A stretch of 64,000 nt of DNA from Deltaproteobacteria bacterium (lineage in GTDB: Bacteria; Desulfobacterota; Syntrophobacteria; BM002), in assembly GCA_020353155.1 (NCBI GenBank), contig CP070689.1, forward strand, positions 686,682 through 750,681. Reading direction: 5' to 3'. The translations under genes and the position numbers were made by a program. This document shows positions 12,420 to 63,386 of the stretch, one piece after another; position 1 is the stretch's first letter; each line of letters opens with the position of its first letter. Under the pieces are notes generated by a model, which was not told the origin of the DNA, did not search any database, and saw nothing but the letters and a program-made list of their open reading frames with translations.

Positions 12420-12449
12420 CCCTATGCCCTATGCTCTATGCTCTATGCC
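12420..12449. repeat. Tandem CCTATGC/TCTATGC heptamer array, 4 units.
   Basis: CCTATGC CCTATGC TCTATGC TCTATGC C. It lies between the ahcY start and the metK stop codon. Confidence 0.8.
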
Positions 12450-13619
12450 TCAAGTCCCCGCCTTCTCCCTTAGCTCATCTACTCTGTCAGTATACTCCCA
12501 GGTGAAATCGGGATCATTGCGGCCAAAATGCCCGTAGCACGCCGTTTTTTTAAAGATCGGCCTTAGCAGTCTCAGATGTTTTATCATATCAGCCGGCTTG
12601 AAGCTGAAAGTCTCCCGAACTATTTCGGCAATTCGGTCCGGAGGAATCTTACCGGTACCGAAGGTGTCAATCATCAAACTCACTGGCTCGGCCACACCAA
12701 TGCAATAAGCAACCTGAACCTCGCACTTTTCCGCCAGTCCGGCAGCAACAATGTTCTTGGCCGCGTATCGAGCCATGTACGAGCCGCTCCGGTCCACCTT
12801 GGAGGGATCCTTTCCGGAAAAACAGCCACCGCCGTGGCTCCCCTGGCCACCGTAAGTATCGACGATTATCTTACGACCGGTGAGGCCACAATCTCCCATG
12901 GGGCCACCGATTACAAATCGACCTGTGGCATTGATAAAGTACTTGGTCTTATCATCGAGCATATTCTCTGGTATAGCCTTGCGGATCACCTCCTCGAGAA
13001 TACCCTCCCGGATGGTATCGTACTTCACTTGAGGAATATGTTGAGCCGCTACAACTACGGTGTGAACTCGCCTGGGCGTGCCGTTTATGTATTCCACGGT
13101 CACCTGCGATTTACCGTCCGGGCGAAGGAAGTCCAAAATCCCGCTTTTGCGAGCCTCCGCCAGCCGTCGGGTTACCCGGTGGGCATAATAGATCGGCATG
13201 GGCATGAGAACCGGAGTCTCAGTGCAGGCATAGCCGAACATGAGCCCTTGGTCTCCAGCACCCTGCTCTTCGAAGAGACCCTCGCCTGCAGTTACTCCCT
13301 GAGAAATATCTGGCGATTGTTTGTCAATGGAGGTCATGACCGCGCAGGTTTCCCAATCGAATCCCATCCCGGAATTGTTGTATCCAATCTCCTTGATTGT
13401 GTCTCTAACGATCTGCGGCATGTCCACCCAGCAGGTTGTGGTTATTTCACCTGCAATTATGGCCATCCCTGTGGTCACCAGTGTTTCGCAAGCCACCCGA
13501 CAATGCTTGTCCTCAGCCATGATAGCGTCCAGAATGCCATCTGAAATTTTGTCGGCTACCTTGTCTGGGTGTCCTTCGGCAACCGACTCAGAAGTGAAAA
13601 GGTACTCGGTTGTAGACAT
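12450..13619 (-). CDS. metK: S-adenosylmethionine synthetase.
   Basis: 389 aa. Signatures [18 protein letters not shown] and GGGAFSGKDP-like ([16 protein letters not shown]). Confidence 0.95.
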
Positions 13620-13715
13620 TTAATTGTCCTCCTTATTTCAACTATCAGCCCCAAGCTCATCGTCTCAAGCTGAATCTTTGTTTTATAGCCTGCTTGTTTG
13701 GCTCTCTAGGCAAGC

Positions 13716-14564
13716 TTATTTTTCAGGCAAATCTCTATCCCCTTCAGTGCCGGCTCTCGTCCGATTCTTGCCAGCGGGCCTGAGGGAATTGTCCCCAGAT
13801 TGTTCCTTCATTTTCTCCGCCTCTTCAGGCTGGTCTCCAGATAGCCCTGAGCCTGCGGCAGAGGTTTCAAGCTCTCTCTGTTGCGCCAGCATCTGCTCCA
13901 TTCTTGCATTCCGTTGCCTCCTGCCGAATGGAAATTGAGGTATCCTGCCTCCAGGCTCGACAACCCCACCGGAGATCAGTAATTTAAAGGCATCTTCAAC
14001 ACTAATATCCAGCGGGATGGTGTCCTCTTCAGGAATTACCAAATAGAACCCCGAGGTAGGATTAGGTGTGGTGGGCAAGAAGACATTTATCGTTTTGTTC
14101 TCCGTCTTATCCTCTATTTCACCATAAGTCTTTCCGGTTACAAAGGCTATGGCCCATACTCCCTTGCGGGGATATTCAACAAGAATAGCACGTTTGAAAG
14201 CATAGGGTGTGTCACCAAACATTGCCTGGATGACCTGTTTGACCGCCACATATACCGGTCGCACCAGAGGAATACCGGAGAGGATGTACTCTCCGAAAGC
14301 CACCACCCGACGCCCGATGTAGTTCTTTACCAAAATCCCGGTGATCATGATAAGAACAATGGCGAGGACAAGCCCGAGACCGGGAATCTTGAAGTGCAAA
14401 TAGGTGTGGGGGTGAAACTTCGGGGGGATTATGATTAGCAAGCGATCGATCAGCCTGAGAATAGCCGTGATCACAAACACGGTTACGCCCAGCGGTACGA
14501 TGACGAGGAGACCGGCCAAAAAGTAGCCACGAATTTGGGCTTTAAACCACTTGAACATACTCAT
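13716..14564 (-). CDS. DUF502 family membrane protein with a C-terminal Gln/Glu-rich extension.
   Basis: 282 aa. The N-terminal ~200 aa match DUF502 (FKWFKAQIRGYFLAGLLVIVPLGVT..., two TM helices). The C-terminal ~70 aa are low-complexity (QQRELETSAAGSGLSGDQPEEAEKMKEQ). Confidence 0.6.
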   Translation of the reverse strand: MSMFKWFKAQIRGYFLAGLLVIVPLGVTVFVITAILRLIDRLLIIIPPKFHPHTYLHFKIPGLGLVLAIVLIMITGILVKNYIGRRVVAFGEYILSGIPLVRPVYVAVKQVIQAMFGDTPYAFKRAILVEYPRKGVWAIAFVTGKTYGEIEDKTENKTINVFLPTTPNPTSGFYLVIPEEDTIPLDISVEDAFKLLISGGVVEPGGRIPQFPFGRRQRNARMEQMLAQQRELETSAAGSGLSGDQPEEAEKMKEQSGDNSLRPAGKNRTRAGTEGDRDLPEK

Positions 14565-16559: not shown

Positions 16560-16603
16560 AAGAGAGTTACTTGTAATTCATTTTGACCTGAGTGCGGCCG
16601 GCA

Positions 16604-16645
16604 TATTTATCATTTCACATTTTCTATTTCGCATTTCGTATTGTG
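16604..16645. repeat. Tandem CATTTCN heptamer array, reverse-complement orientation of the AAATGNN family.
   Basis: TATTTAT CATTTCA CATTTTC TATTTCG CATTTCG TATTGTG. A second short array in AAATGAG orientation sits at 16686-16710 (AGATGAC AAATGAG CAATGAG AAAT). The two form an inverted pair. Confidence 0.7.
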
Positions 16646-16714
16646 ATTAAATGTCTTATCACCTTGTCCTCTAATGTGCATTGAGAGATGACAAATGAGC
16701 AATGAGAAATTACT

Positions 16715-17590: not shown

Positions 17591-17672
17591 AGGTGAGTTT
17601 GCTCATCTGGGGTTTGTTAAATCTATGTCGAAAACCTATTTAACCTGCTCGCTGCCGGCTGCCTGCTTCACC

Positions 17673-18578: not shown

Positions 18579-18622
18579 TCTTACTCCATAACAGAATTTC
18601 GCTGGGATTCTAATCGCAAAGT

Positions 18623-18651
18623 AGTGAAATAGTCAAATAGTTGAGATAGTC
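18623..18651. repeat. Tandem 8-mer array AGTNAAAT.
   Basis: AGTGAAAT AGTCAAAT AGTTGAGAT AGTCAAAAAAAA. It lies between the PilZ terminator and the nadA start. Confidence 0.6.
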
Positions 18652-18695
18652 AAAAAAAATCCCCATCGGCTCAACCACACCAAAGCCGATGGGGG
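18652..18695 (-). terminator. Rho-independent terminator downstream of the PilZ gene at 18927..19280.
   Basis: The minus strand reads GUCCCCCAUCGGCU-UUGGUGUGGUUG-AGCCGAUGGGG followed by UUUUUUUU. Confidence 0.6.
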
Positions 18696-19570: not shown

Positions 19571-20116
19571 CTATTTGGGAATATACTGGAACTTCTGACC
19601 GCCCACAGTGGCCTCTGCCATTAAGCCGCTCTTAGGCATGGTAAAAACAGCCACTCCACGGTCGTAACTTGCGTCTTTGGAAGCCCCTGATTTCACCAGG
19701 ATTACCGATGCCTGAGCGTCGAGTTCCCAATTTCCCCTCTTGAAATCATCCAGCCTTGATTTATCCGCAAAGAAAATTATCTCACTGAAAGACTGGCCAC
19801 CGATCTGAGCTCCTACCGTTAGTTCCGTCACGGTGGCACGGCCAATATGTCTGCCTTTTTCATACACCCATCCATCCCCGTGGCCACCACCAATGATAAA
19901 GCCACCTTTGCCGATTGATGGGAAGACAACATAACCGTAAGCCTTAGCAAAAAACACTTTCATACTAGGGTCTGCTTGCTTGAACTTGACGATGGTTTCC
20001 TCGACGAGTGTTCTTTCCTTCTGCTCCCGAGCCGGGTCCCACCCTGCCCATGTCGACATATGGAGCAAGACTATTAGACAAATTGTGACGAGACCATAAA
20101 TAGGCGCTTTTCGCAT
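19571..20116 (-). CDS. SYLF (DUF500/Ysc84-like) domain lipoprotein.
   Basis: Internal start MRKAPIYG (ATG at 20116), with a signal peptide plus TM. The SYLF core is GYVVFPSIGKGGFIIGGGHGDGWVY ... GAQIGGQ. Confidence 0.6.
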   Translation of the reverse strand: MRKAPIYGLVTICLIVLLHMSTWAGWDPAREQKERTLVEETIVKFKQADPSMKVFFAKAYGYVVFPSIGKGGFIIGGGHGDGWVYEKGRHIGRATVTELTVGAQIGGQSFSEIIFFADKSRLDDFKRGNWELDAQASVILVKSGASKDASYDRGVAVFTMPKSGLMAEATVGGQKFQYIPK

Positions 20117-20301
20117 AATAAGTCTCCCTCTTTTGCTTTGTGGATTGAGTCTTTTGTTGCCAAGAACCAAAAACGGTTCTCACTATTGGCTTAGAGGCAA
20201 TTTTAAGGGTGGCACAAGCTTTGTCAATAGGAAAACTGCTCAATCTCTGTGTTTAGAAAGAATCCACTAGCTCTTTCTGCAACCTGGCCCCTTTCCCTGC
20301 G

Positions 20302-21465
20302 CTAGCCCCCGAAGAGCGATCTTATTTTCATTAGAAGAGTTATGTCGCCCTTTATCTTATATTTCCTTGTCATGAAGGCCCATCGACCACTAATCTCGCC
20401 CCTAGCGACGGCAAGCCACACCTTGGCTGGGGTCTTGATAACCACATCGGGGTTTTCCACGGCCCCCTCATGGAAGGTGGCCTCTTGATCTGCAATTCTA
20501 ATGTGGGCGGTGAATTGCTCGTCTCCAGAAACCTCAAATTGATAAGTAACCTTCAACCCCTCTGCTTCCCTGGGGTTGAACCGTTGCGGCATACTCTTCA
20601 AGAGCTCAAACACAGTGGTTTCACTCGGGATGGCAGAAGCGTCTGACTTCATCGCCGCTTCTGGCTCTCCTGGGATAAAAACCCCTTCCTTCTGCTCCTG
20701 CATCATCTCCTCAATCCAGGCTTCCCTGACCCCAGGGTCCATGCTCGGCGGGGCCGGAGTCTGGCCGACATACGCCTCAAAGCCATCATAGAGGCCCATC
20801 TTCTGCCAATGCTCGTAGTCCGACTTCATGAACTCCCGATTTTCGCTCACCAGATAACCCATGAACTGCCAGAATCGAAGATCCAAATCAGTGGCGGGAT
20901 AACGACGTCCCTCCTCCACAGCCTTAACCAGGTCACGGGCCAGGTCCGCAGCCCTGGTCTCGACAGCTTCCTTGCCAACAAATTCGCCCGGTCCTACAGC
21001 AATTGCAGTTAAAGCCCCTACGGGAAAGGCCCCAAATGTTCTAATCACATATTTGAGATATTCAGCTACCGAGGTCTCACCAGACCCTGCTGAAACGCTA
21101 ACGGCAAGGCCAGGCTTCCAGGTTCTCCTAGGCTTGTGGCCGTAAGTGAGGGACCGGTCCAGAAAAGTCTTCATCTGGGCAGTTACGTTGAAAAAATATA
21201 CCGGGGAAGCCAGGATTATGGCATGGGCCTCCAATACCTTTCTGCTGAGACTTTTGTAGTCGTCTTTGATCCAGCAACTACCTTTTTCTATGCAGACGGC
21301 ACAACCAATACAGTAGACGATTTTATGCTGACTCAAGAATATCTCTTCGAACTCAAAACCCTCTTTCTCTACATGCCTCCTCAGCATGGCAAGCATCTGC
21401 GAGGTATTCCCTAGACCTGCATGGGGTGAACCATTGATGGCCACTGCTTTTTTTGGCTTGGACAT
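20302..21465 (-). CDS. Isf-like iron-sulfur flavoprotein (NADPH-dependent FMN reductase fold) fused to a C-terminal SCP2 sterol-carrier domain.
   Basis: 387 aa. The N-terminus (AVAINGSPH..., compact Cys motif CIGCAVCIEKGSC) matches the flavodoxin-like Isf family. The C-terminal ~100 aa (FNPREAEGLKVTYQFEVSG...YKIKGDITLLMKIRSLFG) match SCP2. Confidence 0.65.
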   Translation of the reverse strand: MSKPKKAVAINGSPHAGLGNTSQMLAMLRRHVEKEGFEFEEIFLSQHKIVYCIGCAVCIEKGSCWIKDDYKSLSRKVLEAHAIILASPVYFFNVTAQMKTFLDRSLTYGHKPRRTWKPGLAVSVSAGSGETSVAEYLKYVIRTFGAFPVGALTAIAVGPGEFVGKEAVETRAADLARDLVKAVEEGRRYPATDLDLRFWQFMGYLVSENREFMKSDYEHWQKMGLYDGFEAYVGQTPAPPSMDPGVREAWIEEMMQEQKEGVFIPGEPEAAMKSDASAIPSETTVFELLKSMPQRFNPREAEGLKVTYQFEVSGDEQFTAHIRIADQEATFHEGAVENPDVVIKTPAKVWLAVARGEISGRWAFMTRKYKIKGDITLLMKIRSLFGG

Positions 21466-21660
21466 GTCTAACTCTCCTTATGGATCTGCACTTCCAGAGA
21501 ATAAAAAGGATAGACACCAGGATACTGCATTCCTATCAGTGCTAGCAATTGATTTCAAATAAAGAATCCTGGCCCGACTCAGATCCCGCTCAGTGGGGGA
21601 GGACCTACCTTTGAGCAACTCCGATGAGGCAAATAGCTTGGTGCATAGTGCAAAGCGTTT

Positions 21661-21727
21661 GGTAAACAGTAAACGGTGAACGGTAAACCGATCATTCACT
21701 GGCTCCATAACTGTTTACCGTTTACGC
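21661..21727. repeat. GTAAACG/GTGAACG heptamer array arranged as an inverted repeat.
   Basis: GGTAAACAGTAAACGGTGAACGGTAAACCG ...(spacer)... AACTGTTTACCGTTTAC. The arms are reverse complements and can form a ~15-bp hairpin. Confidence 0.65.
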
Positions 21728-21842
21728 CTTTTCTGGCTATGGACCATGCGCTATGCTCCTCTTTGTCTTCAGAATGGCATTTCTGTTGCATGTGTAAGGA
21801 AATGAATAGCAAAAATGCGCATTTTGTCTGGGGCAATAATCT

Positions 21843-26692: not shown

Positions 26693-26822
26693 AAGCACAG
26701 AGCATGAAGCATAGCGTCAAGTTCAAAGTTTCAAGTATGATCTGTCCTTTGATCTCTGACCTCCGACCTCTGACTTCTATCTCCTGTATTCTGTCTTCTC
26801 TCCTCTGCCCGCTGCCTGCTGG
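26693..26822. repeat. Composite heptamer array (AGCATNN, then CAAGTT, then an 11-unit CTCTGAC/CTGTCCT family) in a divergent promoter region.
   Basis: AAGCACAG AGCATGA AGCATAG ... GATCTGTC CTTTGAT CTCTGAC CTCCGAC CTCTGAC TTCTATC TCCTGTA TTCTGTC TTCTCTC CTCTGCC CGCTGCC TGCTGG. Confidence 0.8.
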
Positions 26823-28344: not shown

Positions 28345-28360
28345 CAGCTATCGGCTAAAC

Positions 28361-49303: not shown

Positions 49304-49330
49304 GGGAAACAGATCCCTCCTTGACCGTTT

Positions 49331-49747: not shown

Positions 49748-49750
49748 GAT

Positions 49751-50287: not shown

Positions 50288-50374
50288 GCAATAAACTCCT
50301 CACTTCCATATAGCCATCTACGCCAGCGCCAAAAAAATGCAAGTATCCGATGTGGGCTAGCTCCTTACCCCTCA

Positions 50375-52540: not shown

Positions 52541-52837
52541 AGTCCGAGTTTACCGTTTGTCATCCATTGCAGAAATAAGCTCACCCCTTGGCGAAACTGA
52601 AAGCAAAAAGCGGTTAGGGGTGATTTCGCCTTTGCAGTTCATTAGCATATCCTTGATATATTTACAATAGATATGCAGCTGACTCAAAATCTCTCTGGTG
52701 CCGCACTAGACAGGGTTTAACTGCTCTCGTATAATTATTATTCAGCCGGAACAACTTAGTAGTTAAGTAAGCATCATTTATGATTTTAGATTGCAGATTG
52801 GGGCTGAATCCATTCCTTGAGACTTGGTTCTGACACC

Positions 52838-52873
52838 TTAAATCTGAAATCTACACTCTAAAATCTAAAATCG
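52838..52873. repeat. Tandem TNAAATC heptamer array in the tilS and che-operon divergent region.
   Basis: TTAAATC TGAAATC TACACTC TAAAATC TAAAATC G. Confidence 0.7.
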
Positions 52874-52905
52874 CTGGACTCCAATACTCCGCAACAAAGG
52901 TTTCC

Positions 52906-54300
52906 ATGCTGCTTAAAAAGGTCCAAGATACGCTGACAACCTACCGTATGCTCCAAGCAGGTGACCGCGTGCTTGTGGCCGTATCCGGCGGCCCTGATTC
53001 GGTAGCTCTCTGTCACGTCCTTTATCAACTTCGCCAGACCTACCCTGTCGAATTGCTGGTGGCTCATGTCCACCATGGTCTGCGTGGCAGTGAAGCTGAC
53101 CAGGACGCTTCATTTGTCCAAGACCTTGCCCGCCAACTAGGGCTGCCAGCTGTGGTGCAAGAAGTGAATGTCCGCAGCTGGCAAAAAGAGCATGGTGGTT
53201 CACTGCAAATGGCTGCCCGGGCACTGCGCTACCAATGTCTGCACCAGATTATGGCCAATGAGGGAGCCAGCAAGCTCGCCCTAGGCCACAATGCTGATGA
53301 TCAGGCGGAAGAGATCCTGCTCCGAATCTTCCGCGGTGCAGGTCAGCGCGGTCTTACCGGCATGCCGCCCTGCAACCGCAAAGGAGTCATTAGACCGCTG
53401 CTAGAATGCCACCGCCATGAAATTACATCCTATCTGGAAAACCGGAGCCTTGCCTACAGGCAAGATGAGTCCAATTTAAAGCCCTGGTGCCAGCGCAACT
53501 TATTGCGGCTAGAATTACTGCCCCGGCTCCAACAAAATTTTAATAGCAATTTAAGTGCCACCTTACTGCGGACCAGCAATATCTTTCGTGAGGAAGAGGA
53601 ATTCTGGGACGCCCTACTATCTGCGTGGTTGGATCAATATGCTATTGAAGGCGAAGGCGGTGGGCTGCGTCTCCCTCTTGGGCCGCTCCTGGAGACTCAC
53701 CCTGCCATGCAAAAACGTTTGCTCCGTCGGGTGGTGGAAAGGGTCAAGGGGGACCTCAGAAGCTTTGGTTTTCATCATACGGAAATTCTCATGCAATTAT
53801 GCCGCTCTGCTGCAGCCAATAGCCAGATTGACCTGCCAGGAGAGGTTAAAGCGGAGAAGAATTATAGCTGGTTGACCATTGGATTGCGCCAGCAGACCCC
53901 CGAAGATTTCTATTACGAAATCGCTGGACCAGGCAACTACCCCTTTCCCCGCTTGAATCACAGGATGTTGCTGGAAAAAGTTCCTGCGGATCTGGCCAGC
54001 GAGTTAAGTCGTCACCCCACCGAAGCCCTGATGGACCTGGACAGGGTATCTTTTCCCCTCGTGCTAAGGTCTAGCAAGGCCGGAGACCGCTTCCGCCCCT
54101 TAGGCCTGGGTGGTGGCAAAAAGCTTAAAAAATTCTTCATCGATGCCAAAATTCCGAGAGGCCAGCGTCGTAGAATTCCAATTCTTTGCAGCGGAGAACA
54201 AATTATCTGGGTTGTCGGCCACCGGCTGGACGATCGCGTTAAGGTTACCGTAAACACCAGTCGGCTCTTACGACTCTTGTATGTAGAGGGGTTAGAGTAA
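52906..54300 (+). CDS. tilS: tRNA(Ile)-lysidine synthetase.
   Basis: 464 aa. The PP-loop SGGPDS in VLVAVSGGPDSVAL, plus the C-terminal TilS substrate-binding domain. Confidence 0.9.
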   Translation: MLLKKVQDTLTTYRMLQAGDRVLVAVSGGPDSVALCHVLYQLRQTYPVELLVAHVHHGLRGSEADQDASFVQDLARQLGLPAVVQEVNVRSWQKEHGGSLQMAARALRYQCLHQIMANEGASKLALGHNADDQAEEILLRIFRGAGQRGLTGMPPCNRKGVIRPLLECHRHEITSYLENRSLAYRQDESNLKPWCQRNLLRLELLPRLQQNFNSNLSATLLRTSNIFREEEEFWDALLSAWLDQYAIEGEGGGLRLPLGPLLETHPAMQKRLLRRVVERVKGDLRSFGFHHTEILMQLCRSAAANSQIDLPGEVKAEKNYSWLTIGLRQQTPEDFYYEIAGPGNYPFPRLNHRMLLEKVPADLASELSRHPTEALMDLDRVSFPLVLRSSKAGDRFRPLGLGGGKKLKKFFIDAKIPRGQRRRIPILCSGEQIIWVVGHRLDDRVKVTVNTSRLLRLLYVEGLE

Positions 54301-54327
54301 GCAGTTCTCAGCTTGCAGCCTTCTCAA

Positions 54328-54424
54328 CTAGGCAGTAGGCACTTAGCACTACTAGTTCTTAGGTTAAATTCGCTGCCTAGTGCTTAGTCCCTAGTGCCTA
54401 GTTGCTTATTCGCTCTGCGCACAG
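54328..54424. repeat. Inverted composite TGCCTAG-family array plus a CGCTCTGCGC element, 3' of tilS.
   Basis: CTAGGCA GTAGGCA CTTAGCA CTACTAG TTCTTAG (reverse orientation) ... GCTGCCTAG TGCTTAG TCCCTAG TGCCTAG TTGC (forward) ... TTCGCTCTGCGCACAG. Confidence 0.8.
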
Positions 54425-54619
54425 ACTTTACCGGTGGGTTACCCGGTCTGGCACAACTTTCGCAGGCTCTATATCTTCGATTCATTCTCTTTTGTTTTCT
54501 AAGCCCTTATATGCCCAACGGAATCGCCGTTGACATTTACTTTGCAATGACTAATTTGATATGCTAGTACTACAAATTGAAAACTAAAGACTCGACCTCA
54601 AGGTCTGAGGAGAGAAGAA

Positions 54620-56575
54620 TTGAGCCCTTTCTACAAAAATTTAGCTCTCTGGCTGGTTATCAGTTTGATGGTAATTTTGCTGTTCAACATGTTTAACCAT
54701 CCTGGCCAAAGCAAGCAGGAAACGAGCTACAGCGAGTTTATCGCCGCCGTTTCCGACGGTGAAGTGAGTCAGGTAACCATTCAGGGAAATGACATCTACG
54801 GCAAGTTCAAGGACGGTACCTCCTTTAGGACTTTCGTTCCCAATGATCCTAACCTTATTCAGGAGCTGAGGGACAAGGGAGTACAAATTTCCGCCAAAGC
54901 GGTGGAAGAGTCCCCTTGGTTTATGACCATCCTCATCAGCTGGTTTCCCATGCTCCTCCTGATAGCCGTATGGATTTTCTTCATGCGGCAAATGCAGGCC
55001 GGTGGCGGCAAAGCTATGTCATTCGGCAAAAGCCGAGCAAGGTTGATCTCAGACTCGGCCCGCAAGGTGACCTTCGAGGATGTGGCCGGCATTGAGGAGG
55101 CCAAAGAAGAACTCGAGGAAGTTATCGAATTCTTACGTGATCCTAAAAAATTTACCAGATTAGGAGGGCGAATACCCAAAGGTGTACTTCTCGTCGGCCC
55201 TCCCGGTACTGGCAAAACCCTGCTGGCCCGAGCTATTGCAGGTGAGGCAGGAGTGCCTTTTTTCAATATCAGCGGCTCCGATTTCGTCGAGATGTTTGTG
55301 GGTGTTGGTGCTTCTCGGGTCCGAGATCTCTTCGTTCAGGGCAAGAAGCATGCCCCCTGCATCATCTTCATCGACGAGATCGACGCTGTGGGTAGGCACC
55401 GCGGGGCCGGTCTTGGAGGTGGCCACGACGAACGCGAACAGACCTTGAATCAGCTCCTGGTGGAAATGGACGGCTTTGAGTCCAACGATGGTGTTATTCT
55501 AATTTCTGCGACCAACCGCCCCGATGTCCTCGATCCTGCCCTCCTGCGTCCAGGCCGCTTCGACCGTCAGGTAGTTGTTCCCCTGCCAGATCTCAGAGGC
55601 AGAGAGGGAATACTCAAAGTTCATGTTCGCCAAACGCCTCTGGCCTCTGATGTGGACCTCCGCGTGGTCGCCCGCGGTACCCCCGGCTTTTCCGGGGCTG
55701 ATTTGGAAAACTTGGTTAACGAGGCCGCCTTGCTCGCAGCTCGCCTGGATAAAGACCAGGTGGAGATGATCGACCTTGACTTGGCCAAAGACAAGGTCCT
55801 CATGGGCACCGAGCGCAAAAGCATGATAATGAGCGAAAAGGAAAAGCGCAACACAGCCTACCATGAGGTGGGCCACGCCCTCGTAGCCAAATTTCTTCCT
55901 GGAACAGACCCGGTTCACAAGGTAAGTATTATCCCTCGGGGTCGCGCCTTGGGAGTGACAATGACCCTGCCCATCGAGGACCGGCTCTCTTACGATCAGG
56001 AATACATGAAAAGTACCCTGGCCAAACTCATGGGCGGCAGGGTCGCCGAAGAGCTCGTTTTCAATCACCGCACCAGTGGTGCCAGTGATGATATAGATAA
56101 AGCCACTAACATAGCTCGCAAAATGGTAACGGTTTATGGCATGAGTGAATCTCTTGGGCCAATAGCTTTCGGTCAGAAAGAGGAGGCTATTTTTCTCGGA
56201 CGGGAGATTGCCCAGCATCGAGACTACAGTGAGCAGACTGCCATCAAGATTGACGAGGAAGTGCGCCGCATAGTCGAAGAGGCTTATGAAACCGCCAAGA
56301 GTATTCTTCAGGAACATGAGGACCTTCTCCACAAAATCGCTGAGACCCTTATCGACAAGGAGACTCTAGACGGCAAAGAAATCGACGCCATCATTGTGGC
56401 CACCAAACCCGGCCAAGAGTTTACCCGAACCGTGACCGCTGAGGATGTCGTTGCGGGGGAACGGGCCCAAAAAGAGATCAGCCAGCCTCAAGCGGAACCC
56501 AAGAAAAAGAGGGATCCTGTTGCTGCCAAAGAAAGAGACCTTCCCAAGGACAAACTCGGAGAGACTCAGGCGTGA
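54620..56575 (+). CDS. ftsH: ATP-dependent zinc metalloprotease FtsH.
   Basis: 651 aa. Two TM helices. AAA+ Walker A GPPGTGKT, Walker B IIFIDEID and the SRH. Zn protease HEVGHA motif. Confidence 0.95.
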
Positions 56576-57420
56576 ACCGGGCGCGCTTTACCCTTCGCTG
56601 CGGTGATCATACACTGGAGTTGGGCGGACGGACCCTGCTCATGGGGACCATTAACGTTACTCCCGACTCATTTTCTGACGGCGGCCGCTTTTTCCAAACA
56701 GACCACGCCATCAAACAAGGGGAGTTGCTTGCCGCTGAGGGAGCGGACATCCTGGATGTGGGCGGCGAGTCTACCAGGCCGTTTTCCGATTCGGTGGCTA
56801 TTGAAGAGGAGCTGCGGCGGGTCATCCCAGTTGTGGGCGAACTGGTCAAGCGAACTTCCCTGCCCATATCAATCGATACGCATAAGAGTCAAGTTGCCAG
56901 AGCAGCCCTGGATGCAGGTGCCACAATGATCAACGACATCAGTGGGCTCCGCTATGACCCGGAATTGGCTCAACTGGCTGCGACCTCACAGGTAGCACTA
57001 GTTCTCATGCACATGCAGGGATCCCCCCGCACCATGCAACTCGAGCCTCATTATGGATCGCTGCTTTCCGAAATAATAGGATTTCTTGAAGAACGGATTC
57101 AATTTGCCTGCGAGGCGGGTGTTTCCCGAGACCAGATCATCGTTGATCCTGGCATTGGTTTTGGCAAGACTGTTCACCACAATTTACTCCTTATTAAAAA
57201 TTTAAACTCCTTTGCCACCCTGGGGCGGCCTATACTTCTAGGGACTTCTCGCAAGTCATTTATTGGTGCCGTATTGGAAAAGGAGGTAACTGAGCGTGAG
57301 CCTGGTAGCTGGGCCACGGTCTGCGCCGGCATTATTAAAGGAGCCCACATTGTCCGGGTCCATGAAATCACCACCTGCCGGCAAATGGCAGATATGGTCG
57401 ACGCCATTATTAACGCATAG
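56572..57420 (+). CDS. folP: Dihydropteroate synthase.
   Basis: 282 aa. [14 protein letters not shown] and DVGGESTRP pterin-binding motifs. It overlaps the ftsH stop by 4 nt. Confidence 0.9.
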
Positions 57421-57484
57421 CGCTAAGCGTTTAAGTTTGCTATAATAGATATTCTTTAAATTATTTAAATAACTAATAATTTCT

Positions 57485-57513
57485 CTATGCGCTCTGCGCC
57501 ATGCGCTATGCGG
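57485..57513. repeat. Tandem CTATGCG/CTCTGCG heptamer array upstream of glmM.
   Basis: CTATGCG CTCTGCG CCATGCG CTATGCG G. It is preceded by an AT-rich stretch containing TATAAT at 57451-57456. Confidence 0.75.
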
Positions 57514-57527
57514 TCAAGAGGGACGCC

Positions 57528-58877
57528 ATGGGAAAGATATTCGGGACAGATGGAGTGAGGGGCGTAGCCAATGTGTACCCTATGACCACCGAGATGGCTA
57601 TGCAGCTTGGAAGAGGTGTTGCGTACGTTTTCAAAAACGACAAGCGCCGCCACAAGATTGTTATAGGTAAGGACACCCGACTGTCTGGCTACATGATCGA
57701 GAATGCAATAGCCTCCGGTATCTGTTCCATGGGAGTGGATGTGCTCCTAGTTGGCCCACTACCAACTCCAGGTATCGCCTTTATCACCACTAGCATGCGA
57801 GCCGATGCCGGTGTAGTCATATCTGCCTCCCATAATCCCTTCCAAGACAACGGCATCAAATTTTTCTCCCGCGACGGTTTCAAACTCGATGATGAAATTG
57901 AGGAAAAAATCGAAGAGCTTATATTCTCTAATGATATCGACCATCTTCGTCCCACTGCGGAGGAAGTGGGTAAGGCCTTCCGAGTGGATGATGCCGTGGG
58001 CCGTTACGTGGTTTTCCTGAAAAACACCTTTTCCAGGGATCTCACTCTTGACGGCATAAAAATAGCAATGGACTGTGCCAACGGAGCCGCTTACAAAGTT
58101 GCGCCGGCCGTGTTCGAGGAATTGGGTGCCAATCTGGTTCTGACAGGGGTAAAACCCAACGGTTACAACATTAATGAAGGCTGCGGCAGTGTCTACCCCC
58201 AAGTCACGGCTGAATTGGTAAAGGAATCGGGTGCTCATCTGGGCATTGCCTTTGACGGAGACGCAGACCGTTTGATCTGTGTTGATGAAAAGGGAACGGT
58301 GGTAGACGGTGATCAATTAATGGCCATATTTGCTTCCCGTATGCTCAAGGATAAAACCTTGAAAAACTCTACTTTGGTCACCACCGTTATGAGTAACATG
58401 GGACTTGAAATAACTCTGAAATCAATGGGTGGCAAACTTGTCCGTACCGCGGTTGGCGACCGATATGTGGTAGAAAGAATGTTAGCTGAAGACCACAATT
58501 TAGGTGGTGAACAGTCTGGCCACATTATTTTTCTTGACCACAACACCACTGGAGACGGCATCCTCTCCGCCTTGCAGCTCTTGGAGGTGATGGTTACTGA
58601 AGATAAGCCCCTGTCTGAACTGGCCTCAATCATGGAACGCTACCCCCAGCACTTGGTGAACGTCCGGGTTAAGGAGCGCAAGCCTCTGGAGGATTTCCCC
58701 GAGATCACCCGCACGGTGGAACAGGTCAAAGAGAAGCTTGGCGACGAGGGCCGCCTTCTTATTCGGCCTTCTGGAACCGAGCCTGTGATAAGGGTTATGA
58801 TCGAAGGAAAGGACCAGCATAGAGTGGTCGAAATGGCTGAGGAGACCGCAGCTGTTATTGGCCGGGTTATGTCTTGA
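57528..58877 (+). CDS. glmM: Phosphoglucosamine mutase.
   Basis: Start [12 protein letters not shown] (ATG at 57528). Active-site SASHNP, with the phosphoserine in [12 protein letters not shown]. Confidence 0.95.
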
Positions 58878-58960
58878 TTATTCCATTATTTCAAGAGAGC
58901 TTTGTTGCTTCTTCAGGATTGCCAGCCATGTATCAAAAATTTTTGAGGTAAATTTATTTA

Positions 58961-59746
58961 ATGCTACTTGCTATCGACATCGGCAACACCAATACGGTCC
59001 TCGGCCTGTACCGCGGCTCTGAGTTAATCACTGATTGGCGTATCAGGACAGAACAGGATATGACTGCCGACGAGTACGGCATTTTGATGAACAACCTTTT
59101 TGCCGCCAAGAATGTCCGGTTTAGCGATGTGACTCACATGGTGACCTCCTGTGTCGTGCCACCAATGCTCAATACTGTGGTGGAATTTGCTGACAAATAC
59201 TTCGATCTTGAACCACTCATTGTGGGACCAGGAATCCGCACTGGCATGCCAATTTATTACGACAATCCTAAAGAGATTGGAGCCGACCGGATAGTCAACG
59301 CTGTAGCTGCATACGAGAAGTATAAAACCAGCGTTATTGTTGTGGATTTCGGCACCGCCACAACTTTCGATTATGTCTCTCCAAAGGGTGAATACCTGGG
59401 AGGAGTCATTAGCCCAGGAGTCCTGATCTCCTGCGAGGCACTCTTTCAAAAGGCCTCCAAGCTACCAAGGGTAGAGATCTTTGCTAAACCTAAGAGTGTG
59501 CTCACCAAAGACACCATTAGTGCAATGAACGTCGGTATCGTCTACGGTTACGCTGGTCTGGTGGACGGTATCGTGCGTAGGATCAAGGGCGAGGCTGGAA
59601 CCGATCCCATGGTCGTGGCCACCGGTGGTTTGGCACGCCTGATTGCGGCTGAGTCTCAAGAGATTGAATTAGTGGACGACGATCTTACCCTGGAAGGTCT
59701 CAGAATCATTTTCGAGCGGAACCAGGAAGAAAAAAATAAAACTTGA
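58961..59746 (+). CDS. coaX: Type III pantothenate kinase.
   Basis: 261 aa. [11 protein letters not shown] and GADR...DFGTATT motifs (ASKHA fold). Confidence 0.9.
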
Positions 59747-59763
59747 TTTAGCCTGGATATTTA

Positions 59764-60675
59764 ATGCTAACTCTCATCAAGCCACCCTCGCTTAGACCCG
59801 GAGATCGGGTGGGAGTGTTGTCGCCAGCTAGCCCATGCCCGGCCCACGAGCTTGAGGCGGGCTGTGCCATCTTAAAGAAACTGGGCCTGGATGTGGTTTC
59901 TCATGCTGCTGACGAGTCATCCCAGCCCGACTACCTTGCCGGGAGTGATGAATTTCGGGCCTCACACTTCAACGAGCTTGTCCAGGATCCAGAGATAAAG
60001 GGTCTTTTCTGCGCCCGGGGCGGCTATGGCTCCTTACGTATTCTGCCGAACATTGCCTATGAACAGCTTCGGGCTACACCTAAGTCTTTAGTGGGATTCA
60101 GCGATATAACCGCCCTCTTACTCGCCTGTCATGTCAAAACAGGCTTGGTTTGTTACCATGGTCCAACCGTCTCGACCCTGGCCACATCTGACCAGGAAAC
60201 CATAGAATCATTCTGGACCGCCCTCACTAGCAGTGCGCCCGTGGAGTTATTATTTGCCGAAGCAGTTTGCCTTAGGGCAGGGAAATGCGAGGGATCGGTT
60301 CTCGGCGGCAATCTAACCACCCTTATTCACCTTATGGGAACTTCTTTCCTGCCCTCCCTTTCTGGAGCCATTCTTTTGCTCGAGGACAGGGGTGAACGAT
60401 TATATAGGATCGACCGGATGCTCACCCAGTTGATCCATAGCGGCCTTGCAGAAGAGATCTCCGGCCTTATTTTGGGTGACTTCTCCGAAAATGGCCCCCG
60501 GGATGAACTCAACGACCTGGTGCAAGAGCGGTTTGCCCCCAATTCCTTTCCGATACTCTCAGGGGCTCCCGTTGGGCATGGACGGCGGAATCTTACCCTT
60601 CCCCTTGGCCTTCCTGCCACTCTGGATGCTGAGGCGGGTACCCTAACCTATCATCAAACAGCCACGGCACCATGA
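59764..60675 (+). CDS. ldcA: LD-carboxypeptidase (muramoyltetrapeptide carboxypeptidase, peptidase S66).
   Basis: 303 aa. GVLSPAS, the catalytic Ser context GFSDITAL, and the E/H triad region. Confidence 0.8.
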   Translation: MLTLIKPPSLRPGDRVGVLSPASPCPAHELEAGCAILKKLGLDVVSHAADESSQPDYLAGSDEFRASHFNELVQDPEIKGLFCARGGYGSLRILPNIAYEQLRATPKSLVGFSDITALLLACHVKTGLVCYHGPTVSTLATSDQETIESFWTALTSSAPVELLFAEAVCLRAGKCEGSVLGGNLTTLIHLMGTSFLPSLSGAILLLEDRGERLYRIDRMLTQLIHSGLAEEISGLILGDFSENGPRDELNDLVQERFAPNSFPILSGAPVGHGRRNLTLPLGLPATLDAEAGTLTYHQTATAP

Positions 60676-61769
60676 GCGCGGAGAAAAGGATCCTGGATTT
60701 ATTACTCAGTGCTGTCTCTGATGGGATATTTCCCGGTGGCGTTCTCCTCGTTGCCCACAGGAAGAAAACCGTTTTTTTCGAAGCAGTGGGAAACAGCGGT
60801 TTAGTTCCTGTGCCACGACCCATGTCCCGTCAGACCCGCTTCGATCTGGCCTCACTCACCAAGCCTCTGGCGACATCTCTGGCTATAGTATGTCTAGTAA
60901 GCCAGGGCAAAGTTCGGCTGGACGATTCACTTGCAAAACTTCTTCCTTCCACTACGGTACCAAAGGACAAAAAAGAAATCACCCTTAGACAGCTCCTCAG
61001 CCACTGTTCTGGTCTGCCCGCCTGGAAGCCCTACTATCTCTCTCTCGAATCCTTGCCCCAAACGGCCCGCAAGGCCCAGATACGTCGGCAAATTCTTGAA
61101 GAACCCCTTGAATACCTTCCCACAACCAGCACCATCTATAGTGATCTGGGCTTTATTGTCATCGAGTGGCTTCTTGAGGAGAACAGTGGACAAGATCTCT
61201 ACCATTTCACCCGGGAAAAACTCTTTGATCATCTTAATTGTACTGCTCCGGGTTTTATTCCCCTTGATCAGAAGACAGATGTTGACCATAGCCAATTTGC
61301 CGACACCGAATACTGTCCTTGGAGGGGCCGCATCCTTTGCGGAGAGGTCCACGACGAGAATGCTCATGCTCTAGGCGGTGTAGCTGGCCACGCAGGATTA
61401 TTCGGCACCGCCCAGGAGGTTAAATGCGTCCTCGATTGTATTTTGGACACAATTGCTGCCGAAAACATCTCGGCTCCCTGGTCTCGGGAACATTTGACCG
61501 AGTTCTTACAGCCGGCGCGGTTACATCCTTCCAGCACTTGGGCCTTGGGCTTCGACACCCCAGCCTCCTCGGAGTCCAGTGCCGGCCGCTATTTCTCAAG
61601 CAACAGCGTTGGCCATCTCGGATTTACTGGCACTTCCTTTTGGCTTGACCTAGAGAAAGAGATGGCAGTAATACTGCTCAGTAATCGAGTACACCCCAGC
61701 CGGGACAATGAAAAAATCAAGGAATTTCGACCCTTGCTCCATGACGCGGTGATGGAAGAATTCGCCTAG
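60672..61769 (+). CDS. Serine hydrolase of the beta-lactamase/PBP4-AmpH family.
   Basis: 365 aa. SxxK ASLTK, an YxN-like YSD, and an HxG-like HLGFTG. It overlaps the ldcA stop by 4 nt. Confidence 0.75.
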   Translation: MSAEKRILDLLLSAVSDGIFPGGVLLVAHRKKTVFFEAVGNSGLVPVPRPMSRQTRFDLASLTKPLATSLAIVCLVSQGKVRLDDSLAKLLPSTTVPKDKKEITLRQLLSHCSGLPAWKPYYLSLESLPQTARKAQIRRQILEEPLEYLPTTSTIYSDLGFIVIEWLLEENSGQDLYHFTREKLFDHLNCTAPGFIPLDQKTDVDHSQFADTEYCPWRGRILCGEVHDENAHALGGVAGHAGLFGTAQEVKCVLDCILDTIAAENISAPWSREHLTEFLQPARLHPSSTWALGFDTPASSESSAGRYFSSNSVGHLGFTGTSFWLDLEKEMAVILLSNRVHPSRDNEKIKEFRPLLHDAVMEEFA

Positions 61770-61803
61770 TTAGCCGCTGTAAGCAACCCTCTTAGGCTAT
61801 CTT

Positions 61804-63234
61804 ATGAATCAGGAACGATTTGACAACAGGCAGATTCGAACCATACATTTCATCGGCATCTGCGGTACCGGCATGGGAACCCTGGCGGCAATGCTTCAGG
61901 AAGCCGGCTACCAGGTACAGGGTTCGGACCAGAATGTTTACCCGCCCATGAGCACCTTCCTCAGTTCCAGAGGAATTCCTATCATAGATGGATATGGGGC
62001 GGAAAACCTCAAGCCCCCTCCTGATCTTGTGGTGGTGGGCAATGTTATTCGTCGCGACAACCCGGAAGCGGTGGCTGCCCTCGAGGGCGGTCTCAACTAC
62101 TGTTCCATGCCCCAGGCTCTCCACCGTTTTTTCCTCAATTCGTCTCAGTCGGTGGTTGCGGCGGGAACGCACGGCAAGACGACTACTGCCGCACTACTCG
62201 TCTGGCTACTCACCGTGGCCGGCATGGACCCAGGCTGCCTGGTGGGTGGACTGCTGGCCAATTTCCACCAAAGCTATCGTCTTGGCAAGGGAACTTACTT
62301 TGTGGTTGAGGGTGACGAGTACGACACCGCTTTTTTCGACAAGGAACCTAAGTTTCTTCATTACCAGCCCAAAATATGTGTTCTGACCAGCGTGGAATTC
62401 GATCATGCCGACATCTTTCCCGATCTGCAAGCGGTGGAAAATGCTTTCGCTAAATTAATGAAAAGCATTCCTGGCGACGGGCTATTGATTGTCAACTCTG
62501 ATGATCCCGGGGCCTCCCGCCTCAGCCGGGGAGCTAGTTGCCGGCTCGTCACTTACGGTTTCAAGGATCCAGCTCAATACAGGGTGGAAAAAGTTGACTA
62601 TGGCGTAGGTGCCACCCGCTGCAGTGTTTGCGGCCCACAAGGATTTAAGGTCACTTTCGACTCTCCCCTTGCGGGAGCCCACAATTTGAGCAACACTATG
62701 GCCATGGTGGTTCTGGGGCGCGAGCTGGCTCTGGAGACTGGTATCATTCAACAGGCCCTCAGCACTTTCAGGGGCGTTCGCCGGCGCCAAGAGGTAAGGG
62801 GCGAACCTAATGGCGTCACGGTTATTGATGATTATGCCCACCATCCTACGGCGGTGCAGGCCACTCTCGAAGCGCTGCGTCCCTTCTATGGCAACAGGCG
62901 CCTCTGGGCAATCTTCGAGCCCCGAACTAATTCAAGTAAAAGACGAGTCTTCCAAGAGCGGTATGCCACCGTTTTCGACGGCGCCGATCTGGTGCTTATC
63001 AAGGAGCCCCCGGGATTGGACCGCATTGATCCTGAGGAACGGTTGTCCGCGCGGCAACTGGTGGCAGACATCAAAGCCCGGGGGGTGAATGCACATTATT
63101 TCGCTATCGTGGATGAGATGCTGCCATTCATCTTGTCCAGAGTCGAATCTGGGGATGTACTCCTGGTTATGTCCACCGGCTCTTTCGACACCCTGATAGA
63201 CAAAATTTTGGAGGGACTTAGCAGGTTAGCATAG
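61804..63234 (+). CDS. mpl: UDP-N-acetylmuramate:L-alanyl-gamma-D-glutamyl-meso-diaminopimelate ligase (murein peptide ligase).
   Basis: 476 aa. Mur ligase N-terminus IHFIGICGTGMGTLA, P-loop AGTHGKTTT, DEYDTAF, and the C-terminal domain. Confidence 0.9.
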   Translation: MNQERFDNRQIRTIHFIGICGTGMGTLAAMLQEAGYQVQGSDQNVYPPMSTFLSSRGIPIIDGYGAENLKPPPDLVVVGNVIRRDNPEAVAALEGGLNYCSMPQALHRFFLNSSQSVVAAGTHGKTTTAALLVWLLTVAGMDPGCLVGGLLANFHQSYRLGKGTYFVVEGDEYDTAFFDKEPKFLHYQPKICVLTSVEFDHADIFPDLQAVENAFAKLMKSIPGDGLLIVNSDDPGASRLSRGASCRLVTYGFKDPAQYRVEKVDYGVGATRCSVCGPQGFKVTFDSPLAGAHNLSNTMAMVVLGRELALETGIIQQALSTFRGVRRRQEVRGEPNGVTVIDDYAHHPTAVQATLEALRPFYGNRRLWAIFEPRTNSSKRRVFQERYATVFDGADLVLIKEPPGLDRIDPEERLSARQLVADIKARGVNAHYFAIVDEMLPFILSRVESGDVLLVMSTGSFDTLIDKILEGLSRLA

Positions 63235-63386
63235 GGCATGGAGCATGGCGCATAGGGTAAAATACAACTGTCGTCTGTCCTCCGTCCTCTGATCTCCGAC
63301 TTCTGACCTCTGTCTTCTGGCTGTCCGCTGTCTGCTGTCCGCTGCCTACTGGCTCCTTACTCTATGTTCCATGCCCTATGTCCCGC
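63231..63386. repeat. Largest composite array: inverted CTATGCC-family flanks around a CTGTCCT/CTCTGAC core.
   Basis: ATAGGGC ATGGAGC ATGGCGC ATAGGGT (reverse orientation; contains the mpl TAG stop), then CTGTCGT CTGTCCT CCGTCCT CTGATCT CCGACTT CTGACCT CTGTCTT CTGGCTG TCCGCTG TCTGCTG TCCGCTG CC, then CTCTATG TTCCATG CCCTATG TCCC (forward). Confidence 0.85.

Follow-up and report, generated by a model that had tools for sequence, protein, structure and literature searches.

The 64,000-nt stretch of contig CP070689.1 analysed here (the window) belongs to an uncultured deltaproteobacterium (Thermodesulfobacteriota), and the head-to-tail arrays of 7-nt units found in its intergenic spacers are the subject of this study. 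In a gene map of non-overlapping open reading frames (ORFs) of at least 100 aa, 87% of the window is coding, with an intergenic remainder of 8.3 kb. The genes serve housekeeping and signalling functions and comprise selB, metK, ahcY, dxs, nadA, panD, ksgA, xseA and an opp-like ABC-transporter operon, together with a che cluster, tilS, ftsH, folP, a glmM-like gene, coaX, a Mur ligase gene and nfi. A preliminary description of the window had rightly called this gene content non-cyanobacterial; its nearest matches are three metagenome-assembled genomes (MAGs) assigned to Deltaproteobacteria, Desulfobacteraceae and Syntrophobacterales, whose MetK proteins are 90-92% identical to that of the window. 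One relative, L001, is syntenic with the window over about 21 kb, with aligned blocks of 77-89% nucleotide identity. Our tests covered the 64-kb window and related loci.

Period-7 arrays in the intergenic spacers

We measured sequence identity at lags 1 to 24 and compared it with 200 dinucleotide-preserving shuffles. The intergenic DNA showed an identity of 0.325 at lag 7 against 0.257 +/- 0.005 in the shuffles (z = 14.7), followed by harmonics at lag 14 (z = 10.4) and lag 21 (z = 5.8), and all remaining intergenic lags stayed at |z| <= 2.2. The lag-7 identity of the coding DNA was 0.240, with no excess. The preliminary description had named this comparison with shuffled controls beforehand as the one on which its claim of 7-nt periodicity would stand or fall, and the claim stands. 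Its proposed check by Tandem Repeats Finder (TRF) pointed the same way, with period 7, 14 or 21 in 30 of the 42 rows. Under a uniform scoring scheme, 19 period-7 arrays (18 intergenic) were found against 0-2 for each other period from 4 to 13, and period-7 segments were held by 19 of the 38 spacers of at least 40 nt. The arrays thus behave as heptanucleotide long simple sequence repeats (SSRs), their 7-nt units running head to tail and exceeding both chance and other unit lengths.

Identity at multiples of lag 7 was back to background at lag 28-35, so that the similarity from unit to unit is gone by about 4-5 units. Some spacers are heptamer mosaics over their full length; the impression that such a spacer keeps a single phase rests on lag-7 identities of 0.55-0.65 over 130-156 nt and on inspection by eye; the values were 0.63 over 156 nt (63231-63386), 0.63 over 130 nt (26693-26822) and 0.55 over 149 nt (41468-41616). 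An assembly artefact was ruled out, as the same arrays recurred in assemblies made independently from other samples (L081, L082, L084-L092 and L130). The heptamer feature is real and statistically very strong, and it represents a known kind of bacterial repeat in a lineage that is new for it.

Of the 19 sites that had been listed in the preliminary description, 16 have a best period of 7, whereas 47097-47134 has period 10, 18623-18651 has period 8 and 11047-11102 is mixed 6/7. The features are collected in Table 1, including four arrays (17645-17667, 40816-40841, 28332-28357 and 6254-6275) and four inverted partners (597-618, 7238-7254, 10992-11058 and 52776-52799) that were absent from that list.

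Table 1. Arrays and inverted partners in the window (I, inverted repeat; D, dispersed family; scored arrays are those of the uniform scheme)
Position	Strand	Units and setting	Repeat and fold analysis
597-618		CTAGGCA-type left arm in convergent spacer ahead of selB; pairs with 763-784	I5, 22 nt, 82% complementary
763-786		TGCCTAG/TGCTTAG array, 3.4 units, 16 nt from selB stop	TRF period 7, 94% matches; lag-7 identity 0.77; D2
2823-2881		Degenerate CTATGCN/CTTTGCN array across stop codon of thioesterase gene (2871-3344, minus)	TRF period 7, 71% matches; scored array 2857-2881; lag-7 identity 0.67
6254-6275		Short CATTTCG/CATAGCG/CAGAGCG array beside ATP-grasp gene stop	Period-7 segment; D9
7099-7133		CATTTNN, 5 units; inverted partner 7238-7254	TRF period 7; I13, I24
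9639-9727		Convergent-spacer mosaic, AAATGNN x6, then TGCCTAG and CTATGCN units to mltA stop	TRF periods 7, 14, 21; lag-7 identity 0.63 over 89 nt
10992-11058	minus	Hairpin with arms AGGAGTCAG / CTGACTCCT, ahcY-mltA spacer	I8; RNA fold -22.5 kcal/mol, z = -4.2
11079-11102		AATCCGA (transcript CGGATTT) array right behind ahcY stop	TRF period 7, 94% matches; copy number strain-variable
12418-12449		CTATGCN (transcript GCATAGR), 4.6 units, from 1 nt past metK stop	TRF period 7, 92% matches; copy number strain-variable; unstructured as RNA (12361-12452, z = +1.3)
16604-16710		CATTTNN array and inverted AATGAGN array, metallophosphoesterase-DUF2062 spacer	TRF 16612-16642 period 14, 16682-16710 period 7
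17645-17667		CTGCNNG (transcript GGCAGCN) array just past nadA stop	Period-7 segment; D6
18617-18654		Array CAAATAGT x4.5, spacer beside nadA; not heptamer	TRF period 8; best lag 8
21661-21727		GGTAAAC x4 and inverted GTTTACC, forming a hairpin; divergent spacer	TRF period 7; I20; fold z = -3.3
26693-26822		130-nt mosaic of CTGACCT, CTGTCTT, CTGCCNG; divergent spacer, UDP-sugar dehydrogenase / nifU-like	TRF 26741-26807
28332-28357		AGCNATC array covering dxs stop and rlmE start	TRF period 7
35113-35184	minus	CACTAGG / CCTAGTG hairpin between two ABC-transporter ATPase genes	I2, 23 nt, 87% complementary
36172-36256	minus	Intercistronic spacer of opp-like operon, entirely heptamers; on transcript GCATAGA x2, GTCAGGA x3, GACAGAG, then GCATGGA/GCATGGC/GCATAGG	TRF 36206-36245; lag-7 identity 0.65; RNA z = -0.35
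37434-37550	minus	Intercistronic TTAGTAG, TTCTGAN, CCATGCN mosaic, ending 1 nt from upstream permease gene stop	Scored arrays 37434-37460, 37493-37549
40816-40841		CTCTGCN array adjoining stop of VTT-domain gene	Period-7 segment; D7
41468-41616	minus	149-nt mosaic of GTCAGAA, TGCCTAG x4, CTGTCCT x4	TRF 41516-41546, 41562-41591
47098-47133		Array ATTTTAGCAC x3.7, period 10; not heptamer	TRF period 10; best lag 10, identity 0.71; lag 7, 0.26
52776-52872		Inverted GATTTTA / TAAAATC arrays, divergent spacer	I3, I10; TRF 52840-52872 period 7; weak fold, z = -1.3
54325-54404	plus	CTAGGCA / TGCCTAG hairpin from 25 nt past tilS stop	I1, 27 nt, 89% complementary
57485-57513		CTATGCG/CTCTGCG/CCATGCG array over predicted start of phosphoglucosamine-mutase-like gene	TRF period 7; lag-7 identity 0.77
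63229-63386		Convergent spacer wholly of heptamers: GCATRGN from within Mur ligase TAG stop, CTGTCCT, CTCTGAC, CTGTCCG, inverted GCATRGN at endonuclease V stop	TRF 63228-63344; outer arms I11, 94% complementary

Turnover, shared modules and position of the arrays

Two contigs from other samples, L081 and L082, encode an identical AhcY, and their DNA is 99.7% and 99.0% identical to the window, respectively. One GCATAGG unit (-7 nt) was lost at 12434 in both contigs, and L082 lacks 13 nt (7 + 6, two units) at 11099, inside the ahcY array. These were the only indels in the strain alignments of 2.5 kb and 1.7 kb, and both lie within arrays. The arrays therefore show the whole-unit length polymorphism between strains that marks long SSRs, and the copy-number variation between related strains that the preliminary description had recommended looking for is present as these whole-unit losses. 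Such a change in copy number is slipped-strand mispairing or unequal exchange. The less perfect arrays were unchanged in further samples, 26693-26822 in five and 35113-35184 in one (L130).

Between species, entire spacers were exchanged. The spacer upstream of the DUF2062 gene remained 88-92% alignable at about 96% identity of the flanking genes, and in L122 and L123 (about 93% gene identity) its whole 155-nt mosaic was swapped for GCATAGG, CAGCTTG, GGCAGCN and TGTCNGN units between conserved flanks. A 165-nt block of the nifU spacer in L083 was exchanged for ATTGCGG/CGCAATT and CTGCCNG arrays, again with conserved flanks, and at the position of 28332-28357 the same relative has about 106 nt extra, which open with a heptamer array. 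The L122 orthologue of the 17645-17667 array has one extra unit and an additional inverted partner. In the metK-ahcY spacer, an array stands right behind the metK stop in all four relatives compared, but with differing units: GCATAGR for the window, GGCAGCN for both L001 and L002, and AGCATAG with ATTTCGR for L003. Because orthologous spacers keep arrays while the units are replaced, the spacer sequence is ephemeral and the heptamer-mosaic state persists.

The GGTAAAC unit of 21661-21727 also occurs at 4213-4236 of L001. Beside this array, the Ysc84-like gene and the FMN reductase-SCP2 fusion gene at 19571-21465 are absent from the syntenic L001, in which only a 288-nt heptamer-mosaic spacer (4010-4297) takes their place, with a GTAAACN array on both sides of the indel boundary. 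In the UDP-sugar dehydrogenase-thioredoxin spacer, L083 (860-1290) has an insertion of about 190 nt relative to the window and L084, with inverted ends CCCGGATATTTCATGAAT ... ATTCATGAAATATCCGGG and the look of a miniature inverted-repeat transposable element (MITE).

Related modules recur at unlinked sites of the window. The segments 36171-36208 and 63230-63267 are 95% identical over 38 nt, including the non-periodic tail GGGTAAAAKACAA, and a 31-nt TGCCTAG module at 41518-41548 is 97% identical to 54374-54404. Likewise, 37525-37546 and 63229-63250 are 100% identical over 22 nt, and 41562-41605 and 63268-63311 are 82% identical over 44 nt. The modules are oriented alike with respect to the genes around them, and their non-periodic flanks include GGGTAAAAKACAA and CAGCTNGNAGCC..TTCAA. 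The unit variants appear in the same order at unlinked sites, an order that slippage acting separately at each site would not reproduce.

Unit families are also shared between lineages. Exact unit classes common to several lineages numbered 12 against 4.2 expected under a composition-matched null (P < 0.0005), and 18 lineage pairs shared unit classes against 4.3 expected (P < 0.0005), at non-orthologous positions; the recurring families are GCATRGN, ATTKCGR, AAATGNN and GGCAGCN. The exact 22-mer GCATGGAGCATGGCGCATAGGG was found in 26 metagenome contigs (GC 0.45-0.62), none of which gave a megablast match to the window. There it is embedded in longer GCATRGN/GCAGAGN arrays, often as inverted pairs. 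Among the 15 of these contigs longer than 5 kb, 11 had period-7 arrays only, and the other 4 also had one to three arrays at period 6, 8 or 9. In the metagenome flanks, positions 1, 2, 3 and 6 of the GCATRGN unit were weakly enriched in G, C, A and G, respectively. Long heptamer arrays were also seen in metagenome contigs that gave no megablast match to the window, namely a 124-nt GAGCATA/GAGCAGA array at 2552-2675 of L098, and arrays of GGGGTCA/GGGTTCA units, which can form G-quadruplexes, at 8667-8709 and 9723-9767 of L101.

When each array was placed randomly within its own spacer, 4.2 of the 19 window arrays were expected at no more than 16 nt from a stop codon, and 8 were observed (P ~ 0.02). 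The same enrichment appeared in close relatives, with 5 arrays near stops where 2.2 were expected (P 0.02). It also appeared in distant lineages, with 15 where 9.3 were expected (P 0.001); their loci are all metK-centred, so that this last count partly reflects one position. There was no enrichment at start codons, with 2 arrays near starts against 3.4 expected in the window and a like result in the relatives. The Mur ligase TAG stop (63232-63234) sits within a GCATAGG unit, and several arrays likewise include the stop codon. In the opp-like operon, from 35113 to 37550, arrays lie between every cistron. In Geobacteraceae loci, an array precedes a canonical hairpin-plus-T terminator behind the metK stop, and it therefore lies within the transcript. 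Terminator-like sites of this kind were not enriched at 44001-64000 of the window (20 against 20.2 expected in shuffles), and the window lineage may rely little on hairpin-plus-U terminators.

The arrays fall into two structural classes, in that inverted pairs give strong predicted hairpins and single, mostly purine-rich arrays are unstructured. The predicted folds reach -41.1 kcal/mol at 35108-35188 (z = -6.9) and -37.1 kcal/mol at 54318-54412 (z = -4.9), followed by 10986-11064 (z = -4.2), 21655-21732 (z = -3.3) and 63228-63377 (z = -3.0), and heptamer arrays make up 8 of the window's 25 longest local inverted repeats. The folds at 35108-35188, 54318-54412 and 10986-11064 are intergenic imperfect palindromes with stable hairpins, as in repetitive extragenic palindromic (REP) sequences and bacterial interspersed mosaic elements (BIMEs). 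The outer stem of the 10992-11058 hairpin is retained in L082. When Rfam 15 covariance models were run against the window, a tRNA-Leu at 6116-6200 was the sole match, and the arrays matched no family. A GGA or CsrA-like motif occurs in about 5 of 11 sense-defined arrays, a count confounded by purine richness, and to regard it as meaningful is speculation. The idea that a 7-nt unit serves to give stops in all three frames was discarded as a general rule, as several families were seen on inspection to contain no stop triplet.

To describe the distribution, 80 deltaproteobacterial metK loci were placed on a MetK tree, on which the intergenic period-7 signal was clade-structured. The window cluster had z = 5-14 and its neighbour on the tree, L016, had z = 4.0; a second strong group consisted of L028, L076, L044, L040, L048 and L042 (z = 4.5-6.7), and L072 was also strong. 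Among the 80 loci, the signal was absent from Syntrophobacteraceae and from most Desulfobacterales and Desulfuromonadales, and weak overall in Geobacteraceae. In the first 42 nt past the metK stop, lag-7 identity was at least 0.5 in 11 of the 80 loci, Geobacteraceae included, against fewer than 1 locus expected from a binomial estimate. A lineage-specific repeat system, as the preliminary description had suggested, is contradicted by the same signal in at least two further deltaproteobacterial clades, by the post-metK arrays in Geobacteraceae and by the 22-mer in the 26 metagenome contigs. Our literature search returned no description of genome-wide heptamer arrays in these deltaproteobacterial clades.

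Known repeat systems and the origin of the arrays

In cyanobacteria, repeats of this unit length have been on record since 1990. The window arrays are organised like the cyanobacterial short tandemly repeated repetitive (STRR) sequences, as had been proposed, with tandem 7-nt units at many unlinked intergenic loci (19 of 38 spacers; 18 of 19 arrays intergenic), several families in each genome, arrays of mixed units, and inverted pairs. The host of STRR sequences is a (heterocystous) cyanobacterium, whereas the window belongs to a deltaproteobacterium with selB, cheA and an opp-like operon. The units described by Mazel in 1990 are reportedly CCCCAGT (STRR1), TTGGTCA (STRR2) and CAACAGT (STRR3), and a search of both strands of the window for two adjacent units, in any rotation and with up to 1 mismatch, found no tandem copy of them. 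In 150 kb of Nostoc pCC7120alpha, arrays of AATTGCG, CCTCTGC and ATCAGTC were present together with an inverted pair (25923-25990 of L095), and the exact unit overlap with the window was 2 classes against 1.0 expected, which is at chance level. The earlier statement that the units differ from cyanobacterial ones thus holds in the window for STRR1-3, TAACTGA and GGGAATC, all absent as tandem copies, but not in its close relatives L001 and L083, which contain ATTGCGA, the repeat csR4 of Nostoc PCC 7120 (PMC2408588).

The statement that the arrays match no named family did not hold either. Many bacteria are reported to have an excess of heptanucleotide SSRs (Mrazek 2007, as cited in PMC4692102), and a unit of Geobacter metallireducens, MTYCTGA, is present at 36206-36233. 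For G. metallireducens, Aklujkar 2009 (PMC2700814) describes GGGACCG x4 at 49 sites and, as class 3, paired sites with five MTYCTGA repeats. The elements, according to this study, often form opposite-strand pairs at variable distance, belong to few families with a fixed 4-5 units, lie in some cases in genes, and were interpreted as sites of global regulators (IHF/HU) or as RNA elements; insertion sequence (IS) elements insert at fixed distances from the paired tandem-repeat sites. Both systems are deltaproteobacterial multicopy tandem heptanucleotides, and MTYCTGA stands in tandem in the window as CTCCTGA at 36206-36233 and 37507 and as ATTCTGA at 37493. The window sites have 3-4 units, and the sole inverted match to 37493-37522 lies 3.9 kb off at 41464-41493 (I6). 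Compared with the elements as depicted there, the window has many families, variable unit numbers and spacers built of units, and its arrays are not inside genes. GGGACCN arrays follow metK in the Geobacteraceae loci L029 and L054, and the sampled Geobacteraceae loci show little overall period-7 enrichment.

TAACTGA repeats occur in marine Beggiatoaceae, some Cyanobacteria and a few Bacteroidetes, in 2-6 copies with longer arrays in some species, a few nt upstream of start codons, and a post-transcriptional role was proposed for them (MacGregor 2015, PMC4679880). They resemble the window arrays as abundant intergenic heptamer direct repeats with a patchy cross-phylum distribution, but they have one dominant unit near starts, whereas the window has no tandem TAACTGA and its arrays are enriched past stops, not at starts. 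GGGAATC in Xanthomonas and GGGGAYT in Nostoc are G-tract heptamers able to form G-quadruplexes (Rehm 2015, PMC4692102). Here the likeness covers the over-representation of period 7 among intergenic SSRs of 4-11 nt, conserved and free unit positions, convergent inverted pairs, and a large variation in length and sequence between close relatives at the same loci. Tandem GGGAATC or GGGGATT was not found in the window, whose dominant units GCATRGN, CTAGGCA and AAATGNN lack G-tracts.

Enterobacterial REP sequences are imperfect palindromes of about 35 nt with a species consensus, linked to REP-associated tyrosine transposases (RAYTs) and without a 7-nt tandem substructure. The window arrays share with REP and BIME a mosaic, hairpin-forming build, a position past stops and a place within ABC-transporter operons (compare the opp-like spacers, 35113-37550), but they have many unit families instead of one consensus of about 35 nt, and no transposase-like gene lies in the window. 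The TTTTGAT repeats of Vibrio cholerae ctxAB are a phase-variable SSR. The 7-bp repeats of Haemophilus influenzae hmw1A/hmw2A are phase-variable contingency loci (PMC8262952). Slippage by whole 7-nt units changes the copy number in contingency loci as it does here, but those are single loci with long perfect tracts, found where a host-adapted pathogen has the promoter of a surface or virulence gene, whereas the window has dozens of short imperfect arrays, most of them past stops, that flank housekeeping genes (metK, ahcY, dxs, nadA, opp, tilS); the hmw and ctx units have no tandem copy in the window.

With moderate confidence, we read the window arrays as heptanucleotide minisatellite-like arrays of the STRR and long-SSR kind, which are prone to slippage, homogenised between loci and transcribed, and of which a hairpin subset is probably functional. 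Slipped-strand mispairing would create and enlarge arrays in the least constrained part of the spacers. Ectopic recombination or gene conversion, proposed because identical 22-43-nt tracts occur at unlinked sites, would then copy and homogenise arrays between loci, leading to concerted evolution and genome-specific favourite units. The replication slippage suggested in the preliminary description is borne out by the whole-unit indels between strains, but slippage alone leaves the dispersed modules and the cross-lineage unit families unexplained. The arrays would be transcribed as 3'-untranslated or intercistronic RNA, in which single purine-rich arrays may be unstructured, often Shine-Dalgarno-like filler. 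The hairpins of inverted pairs could be 3'-end, terminator-like or mRNA-stabilising structures, and by analogy with REP and BIME in enterobacterial operons they probably act as RNA 3'-end or stabilising structures.

Several points weigh against this reading. Both the ectopic conversion and the RNA-level roles are deduced from sequence, and relaxed constraint alone can account for the proximity to stop codons. The pairs at 16600-16714 and 41487-41631 fold no better than shuffles (z > 0). The three substitutions of L082 in the 10986-11064 hairpin are not compensatory, and a hairpin role thus gains no support from covariation. A sense-strand purine or G>C bias was rejected as a rule, as the skew in the window (0.28 vs 0.03) was not replicated in relatives. 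Finally, slippage or escape from mismatch repair predicts periods 5, 6 and 8 too, which are absent, so that an essential part of the mechanism is missing. This gap leaves room for two rivals, one a protein that acts in a 7-nt register, the other an activity dedicated to copying.

It is unlikely, in our view, that the arrays are cis-regulatory platforms read in a 7-nt register by a trans-acting protein that sets the mRNA stability or translation of the flanking cistrons. The candidates for such a reader would be cold-shock-domain, S1 or CsrA-type RNA binders, or an IHF/HU nucleoid protein, with a conserved specificity that keeps the unit families. The unit families common to lineages above the null (12 vs 4.2, P < 0.0005) and the presence of GCATGGAGCATGGCGCATAGGG within GCATRGN arrays of 26 contigs without a megablast match are in line with this proposal, as are arrays made of a 5-nt core and 2 free positions (AAATGNN x6, 9639-9679), an array state kept at the same spacer despite sequence turnover, and GGA or GGAG in many units (36206-36233, 41562-41591). 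Similar proposals were made for Beggiatoaceae (PMC4679880), Nostoc (10.1101/2022.06.06.494920) and G. metallireducens (PMC2700814). However, the window genes, all housekeeping, include no candidate protein, and the many unrelated families per genome (GCATRGN, CTAGGCA, AAATGNN, CGAAATC, GTAAACN) would call for either a large number of factors or one of very loose specificity. In addition, the arrays stand in both orientations with a bias that was not replicated, orthologous spacers freely exchange the unit family, which is hard to square with gene-specific regulation, and positional conservation in the metagenome flanks is weak.

We consider it rather improbable that the arrays are a functionless by-product of a lineage-specific replication or repair quirk favouring 7-nt slippage, which would build up where selection acts least, with hairpins and shared units being incidental. 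Such a by-product leaves unexplained the identical multi-unit modules at unlinked sites and the unit families common to lineages and to metagenome contigs without similarity to the window. Nor does it explain why long inverted pairs of arrays are in excess when the best local hairpins are considered, or why arrays persist in an 87%-coding genome. It would account for strain indels that are exclusively whole-unit, for fast turnover with no sequence conservation between species, for a post-stop enrichment in the least constrained part of the spacer, and for a clade-structured distribution, as expected of a heritable replication or repair property; a published hypothesis that links heptamer SSRs to the polymerase footprint (Mrazek 2007, as cited in PMC4692102) also favours it.

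A dedicated cross-phylum machinery, namely a protein reading a 7-nt register or an enzyme writing or copying 7-nt units, is likewise a doubtful proposition. If true, it would be shared by the signal-bearing deltaproteobacterial clades, cyanobacteria, Beggiatoaceae and the organisms behind the 26 contigs, and it would explain why the period is 7 only, why families such as GCATRGN recur in mutually dissimilar contigs and why the mosaic state outlasts the sequence. As the presence of the signal is clade-structured, a phylogenetic-profiling search for a responsible gene is feasible.

We regard as very unlikely a non-autonomous mobile mosaic element (of the REP/REPIN, BIME, MITE or cyanobacterial small-dispersed-repeat type, copied by a RAYT-like enzyme encoded elsewhere, with the heptamer periodicity as a property of the element sequence), since the near-identical 22-43-nt modules with their non-periodic flanks at unlinked sites, the REPIN-like hairpin architecture, the exchange of whole spacers between conserved flanks and the IS insertion at fixed distances from paired repeats described for G. 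metallireducens (PMC2700814) are countered by the lack of a transposase or RAYT gene within 64 kb, by the lack of visible target-site duplications or sharp common ends, by module boundaries that differ from site to site, by strains that differ in single units inside arrays and not in the presence or absence of an element, and by the fact that most arrays are unpaired.

The window extends the heptamer phenomenon to uncultured Thermodesulfobacteriota clades and constrains any explanation by a strict period of 7, a post-stop preference, whole-unit slippage, shared unit families, clade structure, and a complete spacer turnover by about 7% gene divergence with the mosaic state retained. For the typing of strains in metagenomes, the arrays offer natural variable-number tandem repeat (VNTR) markers; they also likely break contigs in assembly.

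Neighbouring genes and other repeats

The two non-heptamer arrays have neighbours of their own. A GC-rich hairpin (CCCCATCGGC...GCCGATGGGGG) comes after the period-8 array at 18617-18654. The period-10 array at 47098-47133 lies just downstream of the stop of a methyl-accepting chemotaxis protein (MCP) gene (47138-49303, minus), ahead of cheA, and overlaps a sigma-70-like match, TAGACA-16-TACATT (47102-47129).

The second ABC ATPase gene (34081-35139, minus) has a predicted start within the 3' arm of the 35113-35184 hairpin. The ABC_tran domain begins at residue 59 of its product and at residue 27 of the paralogue, and the real start may be farther downstream; an independent gene call in L130 has the same start. 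The selB gene at 803-2752 (minus) matches TIGR00475 (E = 1e-116), the selenocysteine-specific elongation factor, which means that the organism uses selenoproteins. A fusion gene at 50375-52540 (minus) joins a type II/IV secretion ATPase (T2SSE and MshEN domains) to a C-terminal response-regulator receiver domain, and this gene heads the cheW-cheW-MCP-cheA-cheB-cheR cluster. The plus-strand GC skew is negative over nearly all of the window (1-64000), where minus-strand genes dominate, and is near zero or positive only at 54-60 kb, a region of plus-strand genes. The GC skew thus follows the direction of transcription.

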